Shown: positions 1,190 through 22,682 of the stretch, piece after piece
How the letters are laid out: every line of letters starts with the position of its first letter
Position numbering within the stretch: position 1 is the first letter of the stretch
Assembly (NCBI GenBank): GCA_035439285.1
Contig: DAORJX010000044.1
Coordinates: 1 to 22,682 of the forward strand
Direction of reading: 5' to 3'
DNA length: 22,682 nt
Origin: Leptospiraceae bacterium
GTDB taxonomy: Bacteria > Spirochaetota > Leptospiria > Leptospirales > Leptospiraceae
Translations under genes and position numbers: made by a program
Notes under the pieces: generated by a model
Seen by the model: only the letters and a program-made list of their open reading frames with translations
Database searches by the model: none
Told to the model about the DNA's origin: nothing

Positions 1190-1399
1190 TTAACTCCATT
1201 TTAATTCTAATTTCTTTTTACTTGTGGCGCATTCGTATAAATACAAATTTATAAGATTTTGATAAGGAATTCCTGTATCTCCAGCTACTTCTTTAAAATA
1301 CTTAATTGTATTCTCATCAATTCTAATAGTAATTTGTTTTTTTAATTTACTTGTGTAAGGATTCTTTTTTGAGTTAGTAAAATCATATTCTTTTCTCAT
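1190..1399 (-). CDS. brnA: BrnA antitoxin (CopG/RHH-like) of BrnT/BrnA type II toxin-antitoxin system
   Basis: 69 aa. The motif KKQITIRIDENTIKYFKE...GIPYQNLINLYL matches the BrnA family signature K-K-x-I-T-I-R-(L/I)-D-E-D-(V/T)-(L/I)-x-(W/Y)-F-K...G-Y-Q-(T/N)-L-I-N. It lies 5 bp downstream of the brnT-like ORF, in the canonical toxin-first order. Confidence 0.75.
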   Translation of the reverse strand: MRKEYDFTNSKKNPYTSKLKKQITIRIDENTIKYFKEVAGDTGIPYQNLINLYLYECATSKKKLELKWS

Positions 1400-1404
1400 A
1401 TTTA

Positions 1405-1692
1405 TTACTCTCCTTTATTATATTTATTATTTTCTTTTTTTGTAGCTTTTCTTGCTGATATAATCCTGATTATTCCGACCTTTTCCAAAAAAGTGTGACT
1501 AACAACGAGAAGGTTTAAATTAAAGCTCATCCCAAGTAAAATAAACCTTTCCTCATTTTGAGAATGGTCTGGATCAGGGATTAATCTCGCTCTTTCGTCA
1601 TAAAAAACAGTCTCTGCTTCTTCAAAGGAAATTTTATGCTTTTTTTTGTTTATAGCATTCTTCTTATTATCCCATGAAAAATTTAAAGTCAT
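1405..1692 (-). CDS. brnT: BrnT ribonuclease toxin (DUF497 family)
   Basis: 95 aa. F-x-WD-x-x-K-x-x-x-N-x-x-KH-x-I-x-F-E-E-A-x-x-V-F-x-D, then HS-x-x-EERF-x-LLG and LLVVSHT...IRIISARKATKKE-x-x-x-Y all match conserved BrnT blocks. Confidence 0.8.
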   Translation of the reverse strand: MTLNFSWDNKKNAINKKKHKISFEEAETVFYDERARLIPDPDHSQNEERFILLGMSFNLNLLVVSHTFLEKVGIIRIISARKATKKENNKYNKGE

Positions 1693-3846: not shown

Positions 3847-6231
3847 CTACAATATACGAGTTGGTAGTATTTTAATGATTTCGGTCAGTAAATCTCTTTT
3901 GCTCATAGGTTTTCGAATGAATCCGTTGCAGTATTTTTTAATTTCTTCTTCTGCGTCTTTCATCACATAAGCAGTGAGTGCTATAATTGGAATGTCTTTT
4001 AAGTTTTCCGCTTCTTTGATCATTCGACTTGCATCGAGTCCATCTAAAATTGGCATTCGAATATCCATTAGTATGATATCTGGCTTTAAATCACGAGCAA
4101 GTTCAAATGCTCTTTTTCCGTCCGAAGCTTCAAAGAATTCAATTTCATATTCGCTTAAAAAATCTTTTACCAGATTACGGTTGTAATCCACATCATCTGC
4201 AATTAGAAGAGAAAATTTTGGCAATCCTAAACTGGCATTATTTATATCTTCTTCTTTTAAATTTTCATTCATTATCTGAATGTCCGGCAAATGAAGAGTA
4301 AACGTTGTGCCGACTCCCACTTTACTCTGCAAATCAATCTTTCCTTTCATCATCTCTGCCAATTTACAAGAAATTGTTAGTCCGAGTCCTGTTCCTCCGA
4401 ACTTGCTTATATTCTGATCTAATTGTTGATAGAAAGCCTCAAAAATTTTTTCTTGTTCCGCGTCCGTTATTCCAATTCCAGTGTCTTCTATAGCTATCAT
4501 CAAATCCATCTTGTTCGGATTATTGCGATTAAACACAGAATTCACTTTTACAGTTACAGATCCCGACTCTGTAAACTTAATTGCATTTCCGATAAGATTG
4601 GAAAGAATTTGCCTAAGACGAAGTTCATCTACCAAAATTATTTTTGGAAAATTTCCGGAGATTACAAATATTAATTCAACATTCTTTTCAGTAGATTTTA
4701 AATTAAAAATTTCTTGTAACTCACTCAAAACACTATGCATCAATACAGGAGAGTTTTTGATCTCCATCTTCCCTGCTTCAATTTTTGATAAATCTAAAAT
4801 ATCATTGATGAGGTTTAATAGGTTTTTGCCGCTGCTCATGATTCCATCTAGATATCTCCGTGCTTTTCCCTCTTTGATTTCATTCTTCAATAGCTCAGAA
4901 AATCCAAGGATTGCATTCATCGGGGTTCTTATTTCATGTGTCATATCGGCAAGAAATTCACTCTTTGCTAATGTTGCAATCTCAGCGTGCTCTTTTGCTT
5001 TTATTAATTCATTCTCGAATTCTTTTGTGCGGGTAATGTCTGTTATTACACCTACTATGTATTTGTCTCCAGCCTCATCTACGTAAAGACGTTTTCGAGT
5101 GAGAATAGTTTTTCTTTGATGAAAGGAATCTGTGAACGACTCTTCATTTACAACATCTTCTTCGTCAATGAGGACTTTATTATCATTGAACCAAAAAATT
5201 TCAGCCTCTTCTTTTGGAAAGAAATCATAATCTGATTTGCCCAGCAATTCTTCCCGTTTGAACCCGACGAAGCTACAAAATGCATCATTTAATAAAATCC
5301 AATTGTGTAGTATATCTTTCACAAAGACGGGACTAGCGATTGCATTGATGATGCTATCTAAAAAATTTCTTACTCCTAAAAGTCTTTGTTCATAGTATTT
5401 TTTTTCACTAATGTCTTTGCTATTAGAAGAATAACCTATTGGCTCGCCCTGGTCGTTTGTTATGAGTGAAACTGTCAGAAGTGTCTGAATATTACTTCCA
5501 TCTTTTTTTCTTTGTATCAATTCTCCCGACCAACCACCTTTGTTTAGGATTGATTCAATGATCTCAGGCGTTTGTATTGTATCACGAGAATTGAAAATGT
5601 CTACATTAAGTCCTATTAATTCGGGCTCTTCATATCCGTAAAGCGCATAAGCAGAAGTATTCGCATAACGCACTATTCCGTGCATGTCTGCAAATACAAC
5701 TGCTTCCCAATTGTTTTTGAGAATATGCTTATAGATTTTTAATTCTTCTTCTCGATTTTTTCGCTCTGTAATGTCTTGGGTTAATCCGAGGAATCTTATC
5801 GGCTTATTGTCATTATACTCTATGCTGCCTTCACTTAATACATATTTAATCTTTTCATCGGGCATGAGGAGTCTATATTCAATGGAAAAAATTCTTTTTA
5901 ATTTTATGGCTTCTCTCAATTTCTTGCGCACTCCAGTCAAATCATCTTTGTGCACAAAACTTAGATATGCCTCTACGCTAGAAGAAAATTCATTTTCATT
6001 TCTTTCTAGAATTTGATAAATTTCAGAAGACCATTCAATTTTTTTGGAAGCGACATCTAGATTGAAAGTAGCAATCTTACCAATTTTAAGAGCATGAGAA
6101 AGAAGATATTCTTTTTGTGCAAATTTATTATTAATCTCTGCTTCACAGTCAATGAGAGTTTGCATTAAGACTTCAGTGTCTTTCTCACCTTTAGCAAGCT
6201 TTGCAATTTTTTGAAAAAGTTCTCTCGTCAT
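3847..6231 (-). CDS. Cytoplasmic hybrid sensor histidine kinase / response regulator (three PAS-like domains + HisKA + HATPase_c + REC)
   Basis: H-box HEIRTPMNAILGFSELL. N-box LRQILSNLIGNAIKFT. G-boxes IEDTGIGI and GGTGLGLTI. C-terminal receiver LLIADDVDYNRN...DIILMDIRMPILDG...KP. The N-terminal ~440 aa hold repeated PAS-type segments and no TM helix. Confidence 0.9.
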   Translation of the reverse strand: MTRELFQKIAKLAKGEKDTEVLMQTLIDCEAEINNKFAQKEYLLSHALKIGKIATFNLDVASKKIEWSSEIYQILERNENEFSSSVEAYLSFVHKDDLTGVRKKLREAIKLKRIFSIEYRLLMPDEKIKYVLSEGSIEYNDNKPIRFLGLTQDITERKNREEELKIYKHILKNNWEAVVFADMHGIVRYANTSAYALYGYEEPELIGLNVDIFNSRDTIQTPEIIESILNKGGWSGELIQRKKDGSNIQTLLTVSLITNDQGEPIGYSSNSKDISEKKYYEQRLLGVRNFLDSIINAIASPVFVKDILHNWILLNDAFCSFVGFKREELLGKSDYDFFPKEEAEIFWFNDNKVLIDEEDVVNEESFTDSFHQRKTILTRKRLYVDEAGDKYIVGVITDITRTKEFENELIKAKEHAEIATLAKSEFLADMTHEIRTPMNAILGFSELLKNEIKEGKARRYLDGIMSSGKNLLNLINDILDLSKIEAGKMEIKNSPVLMHSVLSELQEIFNLKSTEKNVELIFVISGNFPKIILVDELRLRQILSNLIGNAIKFTESGSVTVKVNSVFNRNNPNKMDLMIAIEDTGIGITDAEQEKIFEAFYQQLDQNISKFGGTGLGLTISCKLAEMMKGKIDLQSKVGVGTTFTLHLPDIQIMNENLKEEDINNASLGLPKFSLLIADDVDYNRNLVKDFLSEYEIEFFEASDGKRAFELARDLKPDIILMDIRMPILDGLDASRMIKEAENLKDIPIIALTAYVMKDAEEEIKKYCNGFIRKPMSKRDLLTEIIKILPTRIL

Positions 6232-6239
6232 GGATTTAA

Positions 6240-6605
6240 TTATTTGTTTATTAGAATATCTTTTGGAATAGAAATTAATCGCTTCTTATACGATTTTTTA
6301 TAAGATTTTTTAAACTTTGAATGACAGGTTTTGCAGGACGAAAGATACTTTCCTGAGCTAAGTGCATCGGAAGTTATCTTTTCCCAAACCTCTTTGTCTT
6401 CTGGAATTGCAAAGCTCGGCATTGCCTCTAGCATTTTCTTCAAAGGTTCTTTATCGCCTTTCTTGAATTTTTTCTCTGCCAATTCCACATGATCTTCCAT
6501 AAAGTCATGCATTTTCATCTCCACAAATTCTCCTTCTTGGGAGAATAGCCACCCCGCCGAAAGGCAGGTTATCGTAAAACTAATACTTAAATAGAATCTT
6601 CTCAT
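6240..6605 (-). CDS. Secreted CXXCH protein, cytochrome c'-/class II cytochrome c-like (putative heme sensor/carrier)
   Basis: Signal peptide MRRFYLSISFTITCLSAGWLFS. A mostly helical ~100-aa mature region with a single CKTCH motif near the C-terminus, as in class II cytochromes c. Only 8 bp upstream of the hybrid HK. Rests on one motif. Confidence 0.4.
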   Translation of the reverse strand: MRRFYLSISFTITCLSAGWLFSQEGEFVEMKMHDFMEDHVELAEKKFKKGDKEPLKKMLEAMPSFAIPEDKEVWEKITSDALSSGKYLSSCKTCHSKFKKSYKKSYKKRLISIPKDILINK

Positions 6606-6684
6606 AAGGCGAGTTTAACACAGTATTTATTTTTTAAAACGTTTTTTTATTGCTAGAATAAATTAGGCGAAAACTAATAAATCT

Positions 6685-7620
6685 ATGCCTGCATTAAAGT
6701 CAGTTCGAAAGAAAATTAACAAAGTTTTGAGTAATAATGAAATAGCACTCGCCATAGCAGGTGGAGGATGCAAAGCACTTTATGGTTTAGGAGTTGGATA
6801 TAAACTTAGAAGTTGGGGGTTAAAGATAAAAGAAATTTCCGGCGTGAGCGCAGGCTCTGCCATAGGGCTCATGATTTTGTCGGGTAGAGAGGAAGCGGGA
6901 ATCGAATACTTTGAACAACTACTCAAACGAAACAAAAGTAATTTTTGGCCTCATCACCTTCTCATGGGCAAACGACCATTTCCCCACGAGAATATGTATC
7001 GACGAACATTACGTTATGCGATAGACTTCGAGAAAATAGGAAAGAGTAGGGTGAAGATTTTTATCTTAGCTGTAAAAGCATTTCCCCGAAAAGGAAACTT
7101 GCATAATTATTGGAAGAAATTGCTTCTCATTCCAAAGACCATGAGAGCAGTTCTACTAGACGATAAAGACAAAGAGAAAGGACTCCCCTGTCATAGAGTA
7201 GACAATATTGTAAAGGAATGGAATCTAAAAGAAGTAATCTTCACAAATAAAGACTTTCAGTATCCGGCTATTACCGAGCAGATAATCATGAATTCCTCCT
7301 CCATTCCACCGGTGCTTAGTTTTCAGAGAATCAATGAAGAATATTACTTGGACGGAGGGCTAACAAACAATTTGCTCCTTGAATCTTTTTCTAATACGAG
7401 AAAAAAGATTGGAATCTATTACGAAGATACAACACTGTATGGGAAGTCAGAAGAAGTAATGAAAAATACATATTTCATAAAGCCAGATGGGAAGTTGCCC
7501 ATTCATACGTTTGATTATACAAATGCAATAGGTGCTCGAGAAGCCTATGAACTCGGGAAAAAAGATGCGGAGGAACAAAAAGAAAAAATCTTTTCTTTTT
7601 TGAATTCTAAATATGAGTAA
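6685..7620 (+). CDS. Patatin-like phospholipase family protein
   Basis: Oxyanion Gly-rich loop GGGCKALYGLGV, catalytic GxSxG (GVSAGSA), and the Asp of the dyad in LDGGLTNN (DGG motif). Confidence 0.85.
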   Translation: MPALKSVRKKINKVLSNNEIALAIAGGGCKALYGLGVGYKLRSWGLKIKEISGVSAGSAIGLMILSGREEAGIEYFEQLLKRNKSNFWPHHLLMGKRPFPHENMYRRTLRYAIDFEKIGKSRVKIFILAVKAFPRKGNLHNYWKKLLLIPKTMRAVLLDDKDKEKGLPCHRVDNIVKEWNLKEVIFTNKDFQYPAITEQIIMNSSSIPPVLSFQRINEEYYLDGGLTNNLLLESFSNTRKKIGIYYEDTTLYGKSEEVMKNTYFIKPDGKLPIHTFDYTNAIGAREAYELGKKDAEEQKEKIFSFLNSKYE

Positions 7621-16034: not shown

Positions 16035-17282
16035 TTATAAAATTGGAAATCGAACCCAAACACATACATCTTTCATATTGTTTTCTCGTCTCATATTATT
16101 GTCTGTCGTATAAAACGAAATACTCCCTTTGTGTAAATCAATAATTTTATTTACAACTGTCAAACCCAGACCAAATCGAAATGTTTCCTGCATGAATCTA
16201 TCATCTACAACATTAGTCAATCGAAAAAATGGTTCAAAGATTTTATGCGCATTACTCTCCGTTATCCCCACTGTTCCGTCTGAATTCTTGTAGGCGGGAT
16301 TCAGGATTCTGATTCCAAAATCCGTTTTATCATGTGAAAATAGAATATAGATTGTATCTCCATCTTCCGAGTATTTAATTGCATTTGTTAATAATTCATC
16401 AAAGACTAGCTTCAAATTTTCTGGGCTGGCAGTAATTGATCTTCCGGCTAGGTCTCTTGGAAAATCACCCATAACTATCTTCTGATTTTTAATTCCAGCA
16501 ACTGGTTTCATACCTTTTACCATTTCGGTTAATGCAGCATAGAAATCTTTCAGGGTTAATTTACCTGTATAAAAATCCTTTTCCGCTAATATGGCTTGTG
16601 TTTTAGTTAAACTATCACTTAGTTTTAGAATTTCATCGTAGTTGTCTTTTAATAGGTGATAAATTTTTTCATGAACTAAGTAAACTTTTTTCTCTTCATC
16701 CAATTTAGCTTTTGAAAATAAAATACTCAGTGTGCTAATAAGTGATCCGAGACCACTTCCATGGAAGAAGCTAATATTGATTTGGTGTATTAATTCATTT
16801 GCAAGAGATTCGACTTTTCTAGTATCAAGTTCTTTTCTCCAATCAAATACTTTAATCATGGATTCGAAAACTTGTTTCTCGTTTGATTTAAAATCAGAAA
16901 TCTTGGACATCACCTTTCCATAGGTAATCGCCTTTGTTATCGCAAAATGAAAATTGAATTTATAAATTGGGTAGGAGATAATATCATACACATGATAGTT
17001 TTCCATCATTTGTAGAAACTTGTCTCCTTCCTCTCGATTGATTAATAGAATAACCAATTGAAATGGATATTCTGAAAGAATAATTCCAAGATTTTTTTGA
17101 TTTTCACTACTCGTGTCAAGAAAATCATAAACGAGTAGCCATGTGTCATCTGATTTGAGATAACTTGTGAGATTATCCATATTATCCGCTACGTTGAAAG
17201 CGTAAGTAAGATCATCAACGTAGGTTTTCACCTGCTCTGTTATTTCTTTGTTTTGAGTATAGAGTAATATTTTATCAGACAT
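16035..17282 (-). CDS. Histidine-kinase-like ATPase protein with N-terminal pseudo-receiver domain (non-canonical DHp/H-box)
   Basis: The C-terminus has N-box FDELLTNAIKYS, an F-box-like FEPFFR and G2 box FGLGLTVVNKI. The N-terminal ~120 aa have a REC-like beta/alpha pattern (WLLVYDFLD) but lack the DD pair and the conserved Lys. The only H-box candidate is a HisKA_2/HWE-like ELIHQINISF. The start overlaps the cheB stop by 8 nt (ATGTCTGA), so it is translationally coupled within the che operon. Confidence 0.6.
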   Translation of the reverse strand: MSDKILLYTQNKEITEQVKTYVDDLTYAFNVADNMDNLTSYLKSDDTWLLVYDFLDTSSENQKNLGIILSEYPFQLVILLINREEGDKFLQMMENYHVYDIISYPIYKFNFHFAITKAITYGKVMSKISDFKSNEKQVFESMIKVFDWRKELDTRKVESLANELIHQINISFFHGSGLGSLISTLSILFSKAKLDEEKKVYLVHEKIYHLLKDNYDEILKLSDSLTKTQAILAEKDFYTGKLTLKDFYAALTEMVKGMKPVAGIKNQKIVMGDFPRDLAGRSITASPENLKLVFDELLTNAIKYSEDGDTIYILFSHDKTDFGIRILNPAYKNSDGTVGITESNAHKIFEPFFRLTNVVDDRFMQETFRFGLGLTVVNKIIDLHKGSISFYTTDNNMRRENNMKDVCVWVRFPIL

Positions 17283-18354
17283 ATTGTCCTGAGTAGTTTA
17301 AATAATTCTTTATCTTATTCACCATTTGAGAAAGAGGAAGTTGTTCTTCCACACCACCGATTTCGTAAGCAACTTTCGGCATTCCGTATATGAGTGCCGA
17401 CTGTTCACTTTCGCCAATGGTTCTCGATCCAGCTTCTCGCATTGCTAGTAACCCTTTTGCTCCGTCCATTCCCATGCCTGTCAAAATAACGCCAATTGTC
17501 TCACTGGCAAGTTTATTATCAACAATGGAATGAAATAGAACATCCACAGATGGTCTATGTCCATTGACTTTCTCGGCACGAGTTAAGCCAACCGTGTGAT
17601 TAATTCCATTTCTTTTATTTACCACTAAATGAAAGTCTCCTGGTGCAACGTAAATTCTTCCTGTCTGAATTATATCTTGATCTTTTGCTTCCCGCACATC
17701 AAGTCCGAAATCTTTAGAAACTCCCTTTGAAAAAGTAGCAGTAAATCCTGGCGGCATATGCTGAGTAATCACAATGCATGGAAAATCTCTAGGCACTGTA
17801 GATAGCACCTGACGTATTGCTGTCACTCCACCTGTTGATGCACCAATAGCAATAAGATTGTATTTACTCTTTCCATTTTTACCTGCCATCGGATTATTGA
17901 TGAGTGGCATGGATTTATATTTTAATTGCTTGAGCCATCTATCAATATTGATCGTAGATGCTGTTTTAATCTTTTGAATTAATTCTGCTTGCGTTGATTC
18001 GAGAGTAATCGCTCCACCATCTGGCTTTGTGACAAAGTCAACTGCACCATATTGCATTGCTAATATTGCTTTCTCTGAACCTTCCTCAGTTGTGCTACTG
18101 ACCATGATCACAGGGATTGGATACTGAGGCATAAGCTTTCGCAAAAATTCCACTCCATCCATGCGAGGCATTTCTACATCTAGAGTTAAAACATCGGGCT
18201 CTTTTTCTGGAATCAGCTCGCTTGCTTCAAAAGGATTTGATGCTTCTCCTACCACTTCAATGCGCGGATCGGTCGTTATCATTTTTCGAATAACATTTCG
18301 AACGACTCTTTGGTCGTCCACAATAAATACTTTAATTTTTTTGTTATTGTCCAT
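17275..18354 (-). CDS. cheB: Chemotaxis response regulator protein-glutamate methylesterase CheB
   Basis: N-terminal REC KVFIVDDQRVVR...DVLTLDVEMPRMDG. C-terminal CheB domain with GASTGG, ITQHMPPGFT, GMGMDGAKGL and IGESE. Confidence 0.9.
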   Translation of the reverse strand: MDNNKKIKVFIVDDQRVVRNVIRKMITTDPRIEVVGEASNPFEASELIPEKEPDVLTLDVEMPRMDGVEFLRKLMPQYPIPVIMVSSTTEEGSEKAILAMQYGAVDFVTKPDGGAITLESTQAELIQKIKTASTINIDRWLKQLKYKSMPLINNPMAGKNGKSKYNLIAIGASTGGVTAIRQVLSTVPRDFPCIVITQHMPPGFTATFSKGVSKDFGLDVREAKDQDIIQTGRIYVAPGDFHLVVNKRNGINHTVGLTRAEKVNGHRPSVDVLFHSIVDNKLASETIGVILTGMGMDGAKGLLAMREAGSRTIGESEQSALIYGMPKVAYEIGGVEEQLPLSQMVNKIKNYLNYSGQYV

Positions 18355-20224
18355 GTGCTGCTTCGGATTCTTTGTTTTCCTTGTAGTAATTATTAATAAA
18401 GAATCTAATGTCTAGAATCATTCCAATATTCCCACTTCCCAGGATTGTGCAACCTGAAAAGCCCTTTGTTCCTTTTAAATAATCCGGAATTGGCTTAATG
18501 ACAACCGATTGATTTCCTACAATTCCATCAAATACTAGTGCTAGCGAATTATTCTTATACTCCACAATAATTACATATAAAGAATTTTCGTAGTTAGAGT
18601 CCTTGTCACTTGAATCGTGATTGAGTAATCTCTCTACGGAGACAACGGGTATTAGCTGCTCTCGGAAGCGAATTACTTTTTTATCCTGATCGATATAGTC
18701 GATTTTCGATTCTGCCAAATTCAGTGTTTCTTTTACGTCTATTGTGGGGATAATATAGAATACCCCGTTGTAGATTACCACCATACCTTCAATGATAGCA
18801 ATTGTAAGAGGTAGCTTTAGAATGAAGGATGCTCCTTGGTCTTTCTTCGTCTTGATTTCAACATCGCCGTTGATCTTTGCTATATTTCTGCGAACTATAT
18901 CAAGTCCTACTCCGCGTCCTGAAATATCAGTTACTTTATCACTAGTCGAGAATCCAGGTTGAAAAATAAAATCCCAAATTCTTTCGTCTTTTAGATTTTC
19001 GTCTTCTCCTTCTTTGATTAATCCGCGAGCCATTGCTTTTTTTAAAATCCTGTCTCTATCTAAACCGGCACCGTCATCAGAAATAATAATCCAAACTTCA
19101 TTTCCTGAATGCATTGCTTCAATCTTGATATGTCCGGATTCTACTTTGCCTTTTGCTAATCTTTCTTTGCTAGTTTCCAATCCATGGTCGATACAATTGC
19201 GGATAATATGAACTAGTGGATCTGTTAATATTTCAAGGGCATTCTTATCAATTTCTGTTTCTTTTCCTGTAACTTGAAGACCCACTTTCTTTCCGGTTTT
19301 TTGTGCTAAGTCTCGAACAAGTCGTTCCATTTTATTAAATAAACCTTCGAGGGTAATCATCCTTAGCTGCAAGGATACTTCTTGTAGATTACGGACTACT
19401 TTACGTAAATAGGAAGATTGAATAGAAAAGTTCGGAAGATCTAGTTCTTTGATGTCTGGATTTTGAGTTACAAGAGATTCAGCTATCACTAGCTCACCAA
19501 TCATGTCTAGTAGGTAATCTAATTTCTCTGTTTCGATTCGAATGTCTCTTTTTACTGTAGCTTGTCCATTCGAATTACCGTTATTTGCCTCTATAGTATT
19601 TTGAATCTTTTTTTCTAAAACAGGATTTTCTTGCGTGGCTCTTTCTGTAATATGTTTATCTAACTTATCAGATTCGGAATTTTCCGGAGTAGGGGCAGGT
19701 TCATTCGAAACTGGCAACTCCTTATTATCCTCTTCTGTTATTGGAGTATCAGAAAGCACAATTTTCTTTTTGAAGATTCCAAACCTAGGCTCTTCTTTCT
19801 TTGGCTCTGAAGACTCTGCTTTTAGATTTTCTTTTATATAGAAGAGTCGGGGAATTAAAGTATCCGCCTTCTCTTTATACATTGTATCTGTTTTGTTTTC
19901 GTTTAAATTTGTGAATATTTCGTATAGAGTATCTCTTGCTTCCATGAAGAGCTGAATCATTTTTTGATCAAGAAGAGAATTGTCATTTCTTACAATCTCT
20001 AATAATGATTCTGCTGAATGCGATAGGTTTACTATCACATTGAAATTGAAAAATCCCGCATTTCCTTTCAGTGTATGGAAATAGCGGAATAATGAATTTA
20101 CCTTATCTGGGTCAACCGCTGACTCAGTTAAACTTTTTTCCAATTGGATCAGAATTGCTTCTGCTTTATCCAATATCTCTTGTGAATCAAGCACAAGGTC
20201 TGAAAGTTCATTTTCTCCAAGCAT
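18344..20224 (-). CDS. cheA: Chemotaxis histidine kinase CheA
   Basis: Hpt P1 motif FRYFHTLKGNAGF. Acidic/Pro-rich linker. Dimerisation domain, then HATPase LVHIIRNCIDHGLE, DDGAGLD, FQPGFSTS, GRGVGLDIV. C-terminal CheW-like domain. Confidence 0.9.
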   Translation of the reverse strand: MLGENELSDLVLDSQEILDKAEAILIQLEKSLTESAVDPDKVNSLFRYFHTLKGNAGFFNFNVIVNLSHSAESLLEIVRNDNSLLDQKMIQLFMEARDTLYEIFTNLNENKTDTMYKEKADTLIPRLFYIKENLKAESSEPKKEEPRFGIFKKKIVLSDTPITEEDNKELPVSNEPAPTPENSESDKLDKHITERATQENPVLEKKIQNTIEANNGNSNGQATVKRDIRIETEKLDYLLDMIGELVIAESLVTQNPDIKELDLPNFSIQSSYLRKVVRNLQEVSLQLRMITLEGLFNKMERLVRDLAQKTGKKVGLQVTGKETEIDKNALEILTDPLVHIIRNCIDHGLETSKERLAKGKVESGHIKIEAMHSGNEVWIIISDDGAGLDRDRILKKAMARGLIKEGEDENLKDERIWDFIFQPGFSTSDKVTDISGRGVGLDIVRRNIAKINGDVEIKTKKDQGASFILKLPLTIAIIEGMVVIYNGVFYIIPTIDVKETLNLAESKIDYIDQDKKVIRFREQLIPVVSVERLLNHDSSDKDSNYENSLYVIIVEYKNNSLALVFDGIVGNQSVVIKPIPDYLKGTKGFSGCTILGSGNIGMILDIRFFINNYYKENKESEAAHGQ

Positions 20225-20232
20225 TGTAGAAC

Positions 20233-20721
20233 CTAAGCAATTCCTTTTACATCTTTCTCATGAATAAACTTATTCAGGTCGATCAATATTTTCAATGTAT
20301 CGCCTGACTTTCCAATGGAATCGACGAATCGCTCCATATTTGCTTCTTCAAATCCTGGTGAGGGCTCAATACAATCTTTTGGAATTTTTAAAACTTCTTT
20401 GACTCCATCGACGATAAGCCCTGCACTTAGATTGTTAAAATTCATAATCAATATGCAGGTGAATTCGGTATAGTCTATCTTGGGTAAACCGAATCTTAGC
20501 CGCACATCAATGACGGGAATAATCTTCCCTCGAAGGTTGATTACTCCCTTAACATATTCTGGTAAGTTTGGAACAAAAGTCACAGGTTGAAACGCAATGA
20601 TTTCAATCAAGTAACGAATCTCTATACCATACTCTCTTCCATCGATGAAAAAGATGATATAGAGATCCTCCATAGTATCTTCAGATTCCTCTAATTGTTC
20701 TTCTTCAAATGTCGTTGCCAT
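20233..20721 (-). CDS. cheW: Chemotaxis coupling protein CheW
   Basis: 162 aa with the CheW fold signature YIIFFIDGREYGIEI...VKGVINLRGKIIPVIDVRLRFGL...AGLIVDGVKEVL. Confidence 0.9.
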   Translation of the reverse strand: MATTFEEEQLEESEDTMEDLYIIFFIDGREYGIEIRYLIEIIAFQPVTFVPNLPEYVKGVINLRGKIIPVIDVRLRFGLPKIDYTEFTCILIMNFNNLSAGLIVDGVKEVLKIPKDCIEPSPGFEEANMERFVDSIGKSGDTLKILIDLNKFIHEKDVKGIA

Positions 20722-20733
20722 ACACTTTACTCC

Positions 20734-22682
20734 TTACTTCAAATCAATTTTTTTCTTATTCGAGGATGACTGTTGCTCTCTCTTTCTGTCATCTTTTGAT
20801 TTCTTAATTTGAAATCTCTTCACCATTGCCTGGAACGCTTCTGCTTGGCTAGACAACTCAAGACTCGCTGCTGAGCTTTCTTCTGCTGTAGCTGCTGCAC
20901 TCATTGTCACCTGTGAAATCTGATTGATACCAGTTGTAGTCTCTACTACCGACGAAGACTGCTCAATCGAAGCACTCGCAATGTCTTTCACGAGATCTGT
21001 AACATCCACAACACCAGCTGTCATCTTATTTAATTCGTTTGCAGTTCTTCCTGCAATGTCCATACCAGAGCGAACTGTCTTAATCGATCCTTCAATCATC
21101 TTAGTAGTTTCTTTCGCAGCATTCGCACTACGAGAAGCGAGGTTACGCACTTCTTCTGCCACAACGTTGAAACCTTTTCCATGTTGACCCGCGCGTGCCG
21201 CTTCCACAGCAGCGTTTAATGCGAGAATGTTTGTCTGGAATGCGATTGCATCAATTTCTTTGATGATCTTTGCAATGTTTTCGGAAGTTTCACTGATTTC
21301 TTCCATCGCTTTGAGCATTCCCTTCATTTCGTTATTACTAGAAACTGCTTGGTCTTTCACGTTCATAGCCTGATCACTTGCGTCCTTCGCATTCTTCGCG
21401 TTATCCTTAGCTTTGAGTTCGATTACTGCCAGCGTTGAAGTAATCTCTTCTACGCTACTAGCTTGTTCGTTAGAACCTTGGGAGAGAGATTGGCTGGAGT
21501 CAGCCACTTGTCTAGAGCTAATGAGGATTTGATCCGAAGCATTGATGATTTCACCAATGAGCTCATTGAAGGAATCAACGATGAGAGTTAAGGCTTTTTT
21601 GATTTCCGTAAAATCTCCCATGAAGTCTTTCGTTACTTCGACGGTTAGGTCACCTGCTGACATAGAAGATAGAATTCTAGAAATCTCACCAACATATTCA
21701 TTAAGAGTCACTAAACTAGTATTTAGGGCAGTCTTGATAGTTGCATGATCTCCCTTGTAATCGCCCATCATTCTAGCTTGTAAATTTCCTTTCGATAGTT
21801 CAAGGAGAACTGCCGAAGCTTCTTGCACTGGAAGGATGACAGCGTCTAATGTGTTGTTTACCCCATCCACAATCTTACGGAAGTCACCTTGGTGTTTGGT
21901 CGCATCTGCACGAGTTGCAAGCTTACCATCAATAGCCGCTTTCGCAAGCATACCGGCATCAGCCACAAGTGCGTTTACGTTTTCAATACAACGGTTGAGG
22001 TTGTTCTTTAGAGTGTTAAAATCCCCATTATAAGTATCCGTAATTTGATTTGGAATTGCACCACGAGAAATTCTATCTACATAATCAGCGGCAACATTGA
22101 GAGGACCTATCACCGAGTCTAATGTCTGATTAACTCCTTCCACAATTCTACGATAGTCGCCCTGGTGTTTAGTCGCATCTGCACGTGTTGCAAGCTTACC
22201 ATCAATAGCTGCTTTCGCAAGCATACCGGCATCAGCCACGAGAGCATTTACATTATCAATCGCGTTGTTTAAGTTGTTTTTAATTGTGTTAAAGTCTCCA
22301 TTGTATGTATCCGTAATCTTAGTCGGAATAGCCCCACGAGAGATTTTGTCTACATAATCCGCGGCAACATTAAGAGGACCTATCACAGAGTCTAACGTCT
22401 GGTTAACCCCTTCTACAATCTTACGATAATCGCCTTGGTGTTTAGTAGCATCAGCGCGAGTTGCAAGCTTACCTTCTACTGCTGCTTTCGCAAGCATACC
22501 GGCATCAGCCACAAGTGAGTTTACATTATCAATCGCATTGTTTAGGTTGTTCTTAAGGACATTGAAGTCGCCATTGTATTGATCAGTGATTTTCGCAGGT
22601 ATTGCCCCACGAGAGATTTTGTCTACGTAATCCGCGGCAACATTAAGAGGACCTATCACAGAGTCTAACGTCTGGTTAACCC
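20734..22682 (-). CDS. Methyl-accepting chemotaxis protein, 5'-truncated by the window edge; poly-HAMP repeat array + MA signalling domain
   Basis: The C-terminal MCP signalling domain has the highly conserved tip [34 protein letters not shown] and Glx methylation-heptad regions. Upstream are at least 3.1 copies of a 91-aa repeat, each made of two HAMP-like units (G-x-I/L-P...D-x-x-GDF-x-x-L/I-x-x-N-x-N). The 'M' at 22659 in the ORF track is a GTG Val codon inside a repeat. The frame stays open to 22682 and continues ...VNQTLDS, so the gene extends beyond the window. Confidence 0.9.
21838..22682. repeat. 273-bp in-frame tandem repeat (at least 3.1 copies, continues past window end) inside the MCP gene
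   Basis: Unit boundaries 21838-22110, 22111-22383 and 22384-22656, with a partial fourth copy at 22657-22682. acctatcac recurs at 22105, 22378 and 22651, which is exactly 273 bp apart. The copies are near-identical at the DNA level by eye, encoding [12 protein letters not shown](K/R)ISRGAIP...TLD(S/A)V. Confidence 0.85.

Follow-up and report, generated by a model that had tools for sequence, protein, structure and literature searches.

Chemoreceptor-associated poly-HAMP arrays have been described as chains of di-HAMP modules produced by intragenic amplification, and 723 chemoreceptors with at least five consecutive HAMPs were found in NR90 (PMC13446029). Their HAMPs belong to groups A and B of the published classification (Dunin-Horkawicz & Lupas 2010; Coles et al. 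2026, PMC13446029). Their non-canonical HAMPs show little sequence similarity to canonical HAMPs (PMC13446029), and HAMPs of the poly-HAMP type carry a single Gly at the connector-AS2 junction where membrane HAMPs carry DExG (PMC3570549). A conserved Gly also marks the junctions from one HAMP to the next (PMC13446029, PMC3570549). In the published gearbox model, HAMPs within a poly-HAMP chain alternate between opposite helix-rotation states, and a di-HAMP module returns the signal to its starting sense (PMC13446029, PMC3570549). The poly-HAMP receptor architecture is already described and widespread, and the gene analysed here is a member of this published class.

The gene lies at the end of the window, meaning the whole stretch of DNA that was analysed (22,682 nt, contig DAORJX010000044.1 of a Leptospiraceae bacterium). 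Contigs with an identical CheW, together with genome matches, led to uncultured Leptospiraceae from activated sludge and wastewater. A first-pass annotation had placed a tandem repeat of 273 bp at 21838-22682, and this was borne out: TRF reported positions 21839-22682 with a period of 273, 3.1 copies, 84% matches, 0 indels and a score of 1152, and a repeat search of the window found the same 273-nt spacing with three in-register copies. A score this high together with in-register copies shows that the array is real, far beyond chance. It is cut by the window end, and the repeat continues past 22682. Coding of the array on the plus strand was rejected, as ORFs there reach at most 65 aa and the third-position pattern of the copy differences suits the minus-strand frame.

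The array belongs to a minus-strand gene for a methyl-accepting chemotaxis protein (MCP), whose 3' part (20734-22682, 648 codons plus stop) has its stop codon at 20734-20736 and stays open in frame from there to the window end; the N-terminal part of the gene lies beyond that point. Pfam matched the 648-aa partial product to HAMP_2 (PF18947) in five stretches (E 9.3e-121) and after them to MCPsignal (E 2.4e-44). Read in the direction of the gene, all on the minus strand, the window begins with the last 57 aa of a di-HAMP unit, mainly its canonical HAMP (c671, 22510-22682, cut by the window end), followed by two complete 91-aa di-HAMP units, c580 (22237-22509, a non-canonical and then a canonical HAMP) and c489 (21964-22236). 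Next comes a degenerate proximal unit, c398 (21691-21963), supported by two HAMP_2 stretches in a 174-aa segment; its non-canonical half (~21832-21963) is repeat-like, and its canonical half has diverged to 63-65% DNA identity with the other units. The last HAMP before the methyl-accepting domain (21556-21690, aa ~331-375) contains the second of those HAMP_2 stretches and is modelled by AF2 with a connector at aa 342-356 between helices 311-341 and 357-399. The array therefore sits directly upstream of the MCP signalling domain, the methyl-accepting and kinase-control region that follows this last HAMP (20905-21378; PF00015, residues 435-592, E 2.4e-44). At least three full copies and a partial fourth had been counted before; that count stands for 273-nt periods, and in terms of the gene the 3.1 periods correspond to the first half of degenerate c398, two complete units and 0.63 unit of c671.

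Immediately downstream of the MCP gene, on the same strand, are genes for CheW (20233-20721; Pfam CheW, E 3.2e-32), the histidine kinase CheA (18344-20224; Hpt, H-kinase_dim, HATPase_c and CheW) and the methylesterase CheB (17275-18354; Response_reg and CheB_methylest), so that the signalling domain and its neighbours identify the receptor as the MCP of a chemosensory cluster. Past CheB the same strand continues with a histidine kinase and then a receiver: the stretch 15657-17282 (minus strand) extends the cluster with a 415-aa kinase that has a HATPase_c match only and with a single-domain receiver. A search of the window for a CheR gene found none. The additional kinases and receiver and the lack of a CheR gene in the window suggest that the chemosensory pathway acts on something besides motility, or in place of it.

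Three further features of the window were recorded in passing. Just downstream of the che cluster, an 830-aa homologue of the major vault protein (13068-15560, minus strand; MVP_shoulder E 9e-24, Vault_3 E 2e-8, Band_7) keeps its position in all related Leptospiraceae contigs, and a bacterial vault-protein homologue beside a chemosensory cluster may merit separate study. Past this vault-like gene the che cluster continues with a MASE1-PAS hybrid histidine kinase (10299-12752, minus strand). Positions 1190-1692 (minus strand) encode a toxin of the BrnT family (95 aa, E 8e-28), and the 69-aa ORF after it is a possible antitoxin of the BrnA type.

The claim that each 273-bp repeat encodes two HAMP units was upheld by sequence and structure comparisons. 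Submitted alone, the 91-aa unit c580 matched HAMP_2 at residues 23-89 (E 1.1e-33), a position at which the 67-position model spans the output helix of the first HAMP and the whole of the second. [quoted passage not shown] A phmmer search with the whole array gave an alignment in di-HAMP register with 9trk_A (E 6.8e-11) and a match to Aer2 3vol (E 0.003). Motif spacing was constant at the 91-aa period (a-32-B-59-a), and every unit has the junction Gly in the form NGDF and QGDY rather than DExG. An alignment of 35 homologues from a wide range of taxa retains the unit consensus, and its invariant Gly columns include G128, G161, G174, G182, G207 and G219, and 7867 homologues were found at E <=1e-30.

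An AF2 model of the first 400 aa, built from the 35-sequence alignment, had a mean pLDDT of 87 and consisted of ~31-aa helices joined by regular 14-aa connectors. The eight connectors between nine helices in 400 aa correspond to two HAMPs per 91 aa, and the non-canonical half is itself modelled as helix-connector-helix. The model is of a monomer, and the expected form is a dimeric four-helix bundle. In a Foldseek search the top three hits were the Aer2 poly-HAMP structures 4i44, 4i3m and 3lnr (probability 1.00, target-normalised TM 0.55-0.56).

The profile of the non-canonical half gave only chance matches against the PDB (E >=0.1), and hhalign related it to the canonical half over 21 columns of the output helix only (probability 77%), a pattern that fits the published description of non-canonical HAMPs (PMC13446029). 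Its assignment as a HAMP draws on the literature, the modelled structure and the Foldseek result rather than on a significant structure match to its own sequence. This half is also what might favour an array that is a generic coiled-coil spacer and encodes no HAMP signalling domains. We consider that explanation to have practically no chance of being correct, given that HAMP_2 is matched far above threshold, 14-aa connectors recur regularly in the model, the best fold matches are poly-HAMP structures of Aer2, and the array aligns in register with the AskA crystal structure sequence. Together the results confirmed, at the level of a modelled structure, that each 91-aa unit is built of one non-canonical and one canonical HAMP.

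Full-length orthologues of 1477-1490 aa carry a 4HB_MCP_1 sensor and two TM segments (both present in the related contigs L002, L004, L017 and L018), and their first HAMP shows DEIG, an instance of the DExG motif. Between it and the signalling domain lie HAMP-sized segments totalling about 1050 aa, a length from which we estimate a chain of ~20 HAMPs; the sensor domain and total HAMP number ascribed to the window gene come from these orthologues. The reading that we prefer, with a probability of roughly 85%, is that the repeat is the membrane-distal part of a chemoreceptor poly-HAMP array, that its di-HAMP units are old duplicates conserved at the protein level, and that k=55 repeats end the window.

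The copies had been described as near-identical at the nucleotide level and hence as evidence of recent expansion or ongoing homogenising recombination. Neither description survived measurement. In the register of the first-pass annotation, the pairs of full copies are 81.7%, 84.6% and 79.1% identical in DNA, and the longest exact stretch common to two window copies is 55 nt. Copies are 79-88% identical in all alleles examined (79-85% in the window, at most 88% in related alleles). Unit against unit, protein identity is 84-91%, and 70-76% of the differences between copies (37 of 50, 32 of 42 and 40 of 57) fall on third codon positions of the minus-strand frame.

Divergence between units is also large compared with divergence between lineages. 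Nei-Gojobori estimates between units gave dS of 0.58-1.3 and dN of 0.04-0.13, and the 355 non-repeat C-terminal codons of the window gene gave dS of 0.48 (L001), 0.63 (L006) and 0.83 (L018) against relatives, so that between-unit dS equals or exceeds dS between the species-level lineages compared (0.48-0.83). Ungapped dN/dS values against L007 and L008 were discarded, since indels make that comparison invalid. In a neighbour-joining tree of all units, the two nearest the signalling domain, c489 and c398, clustered by position across all alleles, and the more distal units were less orderly. The dS of orthologous c489 equals that of the backbone, which together with the positional orthology of c489 and c398 leaves no sign of gene conversion in these units. 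Synonymous conservation per codon across units was mildly uneven (0.48-0.78) and revealed no clear gene-conversion tract. With high dS, low dN and differences concentrated at third positions, the units are, judging by their sequences, old duplicates whose proteins purifying selection has kept similar, and not products of recent amplification or gene conversion.

The warning that the locus is assembly-prone proved well founded. The last 55 nt of the window (22628-22682) match an internal stretch exactly (22355-22409), and the edge of this other copy, 22409, is exactly where an independent MAG contig (L027, GCA_035439145.1) starts; a further contig, L026, begins at 22430. All four contigs of the window's lineage end inside the array. 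Exact stretches common to units are 35-58 nt long, and such repeats break a short-read assembly at k=55, which explains why the window stops at 22682; we infer that an assembler working on a k=55 de Bruijn graph ended the contig where the graph branches. Breaks of this kind amount to fragmentation rather than to the collapse of copies that had also been feared.

Two other, short contigs with this gene repeat their first bases near the opposite end: positions 1-141 of L009, from a k141 assembler, recur at 2398-2538, and the first 122 nt of L020 (1-122) recur near 2780, suggesting graph cycles. The L009 alignment covers residues 75-375 and reaches the contig start, so a break may have occurred there as well. 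In L024, at 3.4x coverage, the orthologous MCP (5093-9402) is called as four ORFs of 411, 72, 305 and 641 aa, probably through frameshift errors. The 641-aa piece is the database protein P0026 (97% identical), which resembles a truncated MCP. We set P0026 aside as evidence of copy number, its only source being this low-coverage contig with a frameshift-split gene.

These breaks raise the question of whether the array or its copy number might itself be an assembly artefact, made by expanding a single unit or by fusing paralogous MCP genes during assembly. The end of the window on a k=55 repeat node is compatible with this, as are the four contigs that end in the array (L005, L007, L026 and L027), three that break elsewhere in or next to the gene (L013, L014 and L022), the frameshift-split gene of L024, an abrupt switch to another N-terminus and other upstream genes inside c580 of L003, and the paralogous poly-HAMP MCP genes that lie directly upstream in L001 and L002. 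Each unit, however, has its own synonymous pattern, which a duplicated read pile-up cannot make, and the reading frame is open throughout. The same 1477-aa architecture was recovered from four samples and assemblers, thousands of homologues share the organisation, and four tandem units of 91 aa, there with 78-93% DNA identity, also occur in a more distant relative with a chromosome-level assembly (OW818693.1, 4.9 Mb). An artefact is accordingly highly improbable, and the array is better read as a genuine set of old duplicates whose exact repeats interrupt assembly.

Directly upstream, L001 (1-5246) and L002 (459-5245) carry a second cheW and a further two MCP genes of the poly-HAMP type. This MCP-CheW module has 79% DNA identity to window positions 20241-21937, which hold the MCP 3' end and cheW, and the identity points to a tandem duplication of the module. 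The paralogues are possible partners for recombination or for misassembly.

Copy number does differ among orthologues, as had been suggested, with unit number and order varying between related lineages. Four contigs (L001, L002, L004 and L017) have two units, an insert, one unit, a 169-aa HAMP-like insert and three units. L018 has one unit, an insert, three units, an insert and three units; L003 and L006 have six tandem units, L019 and L021 have two units, and L008 has no tandem run. Complete orthologues are few (seven loci in the metagenome scan, ten in the genome scan), and the allele statistics rest on ~10 alleles.

Two sharp breakpoints lie within the array. The window and L005 are 99.96% identical over 12.3 kb, and 28 of their 33 mismatches fall in the last 165 nt of the window, where c671 diverges from L005 from 22518 outward. 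Here c671 is nearer to the same-position unit of the L001 type (91%) than to the L005 unit (84%). The second breakpoint is the switch inside c580 of L003, which equals L002 downstream and for ~1650 nt upstream of the stop. Beyond the switch L003 (6341-9988) has a different array with its six tandem units, a different 4HB sensor, and unrelated upstream genes for PfkB and a cytidylyltransferase; the allele reflects a genuine exchange of domains or else chimeric assembly of this 5x-coverage contig. Both breakpoints could equally reflect recombination or strain-chimeric assembly, and some recent recombination is possible.

The first-pass annotation had also proposed that this is a recently expanded, recombination-active array whose copy number shifts fast between strains and tunes signalling, as in a contingency or tuning locus. 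Variation in module number and order among relatives speaks for this proposal, as do the two sharp breakpoints between backbones that are 99.96-100% identical elsewhere and the exact stretches of 35-58 nt common to units. Stretches of this size are about the minimum length that RecA recombination needs. Against these points, identity between copies is no more than 79-88% in any of the alleles examined, dS between units is at least as high as between the lineages compared, and c489 and c398 are positional orthologues, c489 with the dS of the backbone. In the L001-type lineage the 4.4-kb gene is essentially the same in four independent assemblies (0-11 mismatches over the array region), which speaks against rapid variation. 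Outside the repeats, the gene is only 87-91% identical between lineages of different architecture, too little for strains of a single clone, and the breakpoints have an equally good explanation in chimeric assembly. Fast variation of the contingency type is therefore improbable, and we favour changes in module number and order between lineages over evolutionary time.

A related idea, somewhat less improbable though still unlikely, is that the array is a recombination hotspot in wastewater Leptospiraceae. Exchange with other units or with neighbouring paralogues would swap sensors and alter array length, the breakpoints at 22518 and in L003 would be real, and synonymous divergence might itself have been selected to keep exchange rare. 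If so, exchange would yield receptor variants on otherwise identical genomes.

Under the preferred reading of an old, protein-conserved array, the orthologues suggest a signalling chain in which the 4HB sensor would act through a membrane-proximal DExG HAMP and ~20 HAMP-sized segments on the signalling domain, which would control the adjacently encoded CheW and CheA. In the AF2 model the long helices are predicted to be output helices of one HAMP that continue as the input helix of the next. By analogy with the published gearbox model, the signal would pass as alternating helix rotations, and each di-HAMP module would restore its original sense. If the sense is restored module by module, gain or loss of whole modules would keep the receptor functional, and such tolerance fits the allele variation seen, which is in whole units or unit-bounded blocks. 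With their varied di-HAMP number and order, the related alleles amount to a natural series of one receptor, which could serve to probe the prediction of the rotation (gearbox) model that adding or losing whole modules leaves signalling unaffected. For the window itself, the useful outcomes are a corrected claim of copy identity and an end traced to a repeat node: the contig almost certainly stops at the array, the gene is truncated, and statements on its copy number need long reads.

Among known systems, Aer2 of Pseudomonas aeruginosa (3LNR, 4I3M, 4I44) is the best structural match to the model, yet at only 16-17% identity. It shares concatenated HAMPs, continuous AS2-AS1 helices and alternating canonical-like and non-canonical conformers, but has 3+2 dissimilar HAMPs around a PAS-haem domain, without repetitive di-HAMP modules (PMC13446029). 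Myxococcus AskA/AskB and the fungal group III hybrid histidine kinases (9trk, 9trj) have the same di-HAMP logic and a module of ~90 aa, but their output is GAF plus histidine kinase rather than an MCP domain, and their HAMPs belong to different groups, C and D, considered to have evolved independently (PMC13446029).

The closest described systems are the chemoreceptor-associated poly-HAMP arrays. These are described as soluble and as typically lacking an upstream input domain (PMC13446029), a typical trait and not a search criterion of that paper, whereas the orthologues here are transmembrane (two TM segments), with a 4HB_MCP_1 sensor and a DExG HAMP. The same paper stresses modules that are nearly identical within an array (PMC13446029), in contrast to 84-91% protein and 79-85% DNA identity in the window, and the arrays of the orthologues are interrupted by non-repeat HAMP-like inserts, unlike the typical description. 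In common with the class, the window gene has di-HAMP modules of a non-canonical and a canonical HAMP, constant linkers, the junction Gly, more than five consecutive HAMPs and a position upstream of the methyl-accepting domain.
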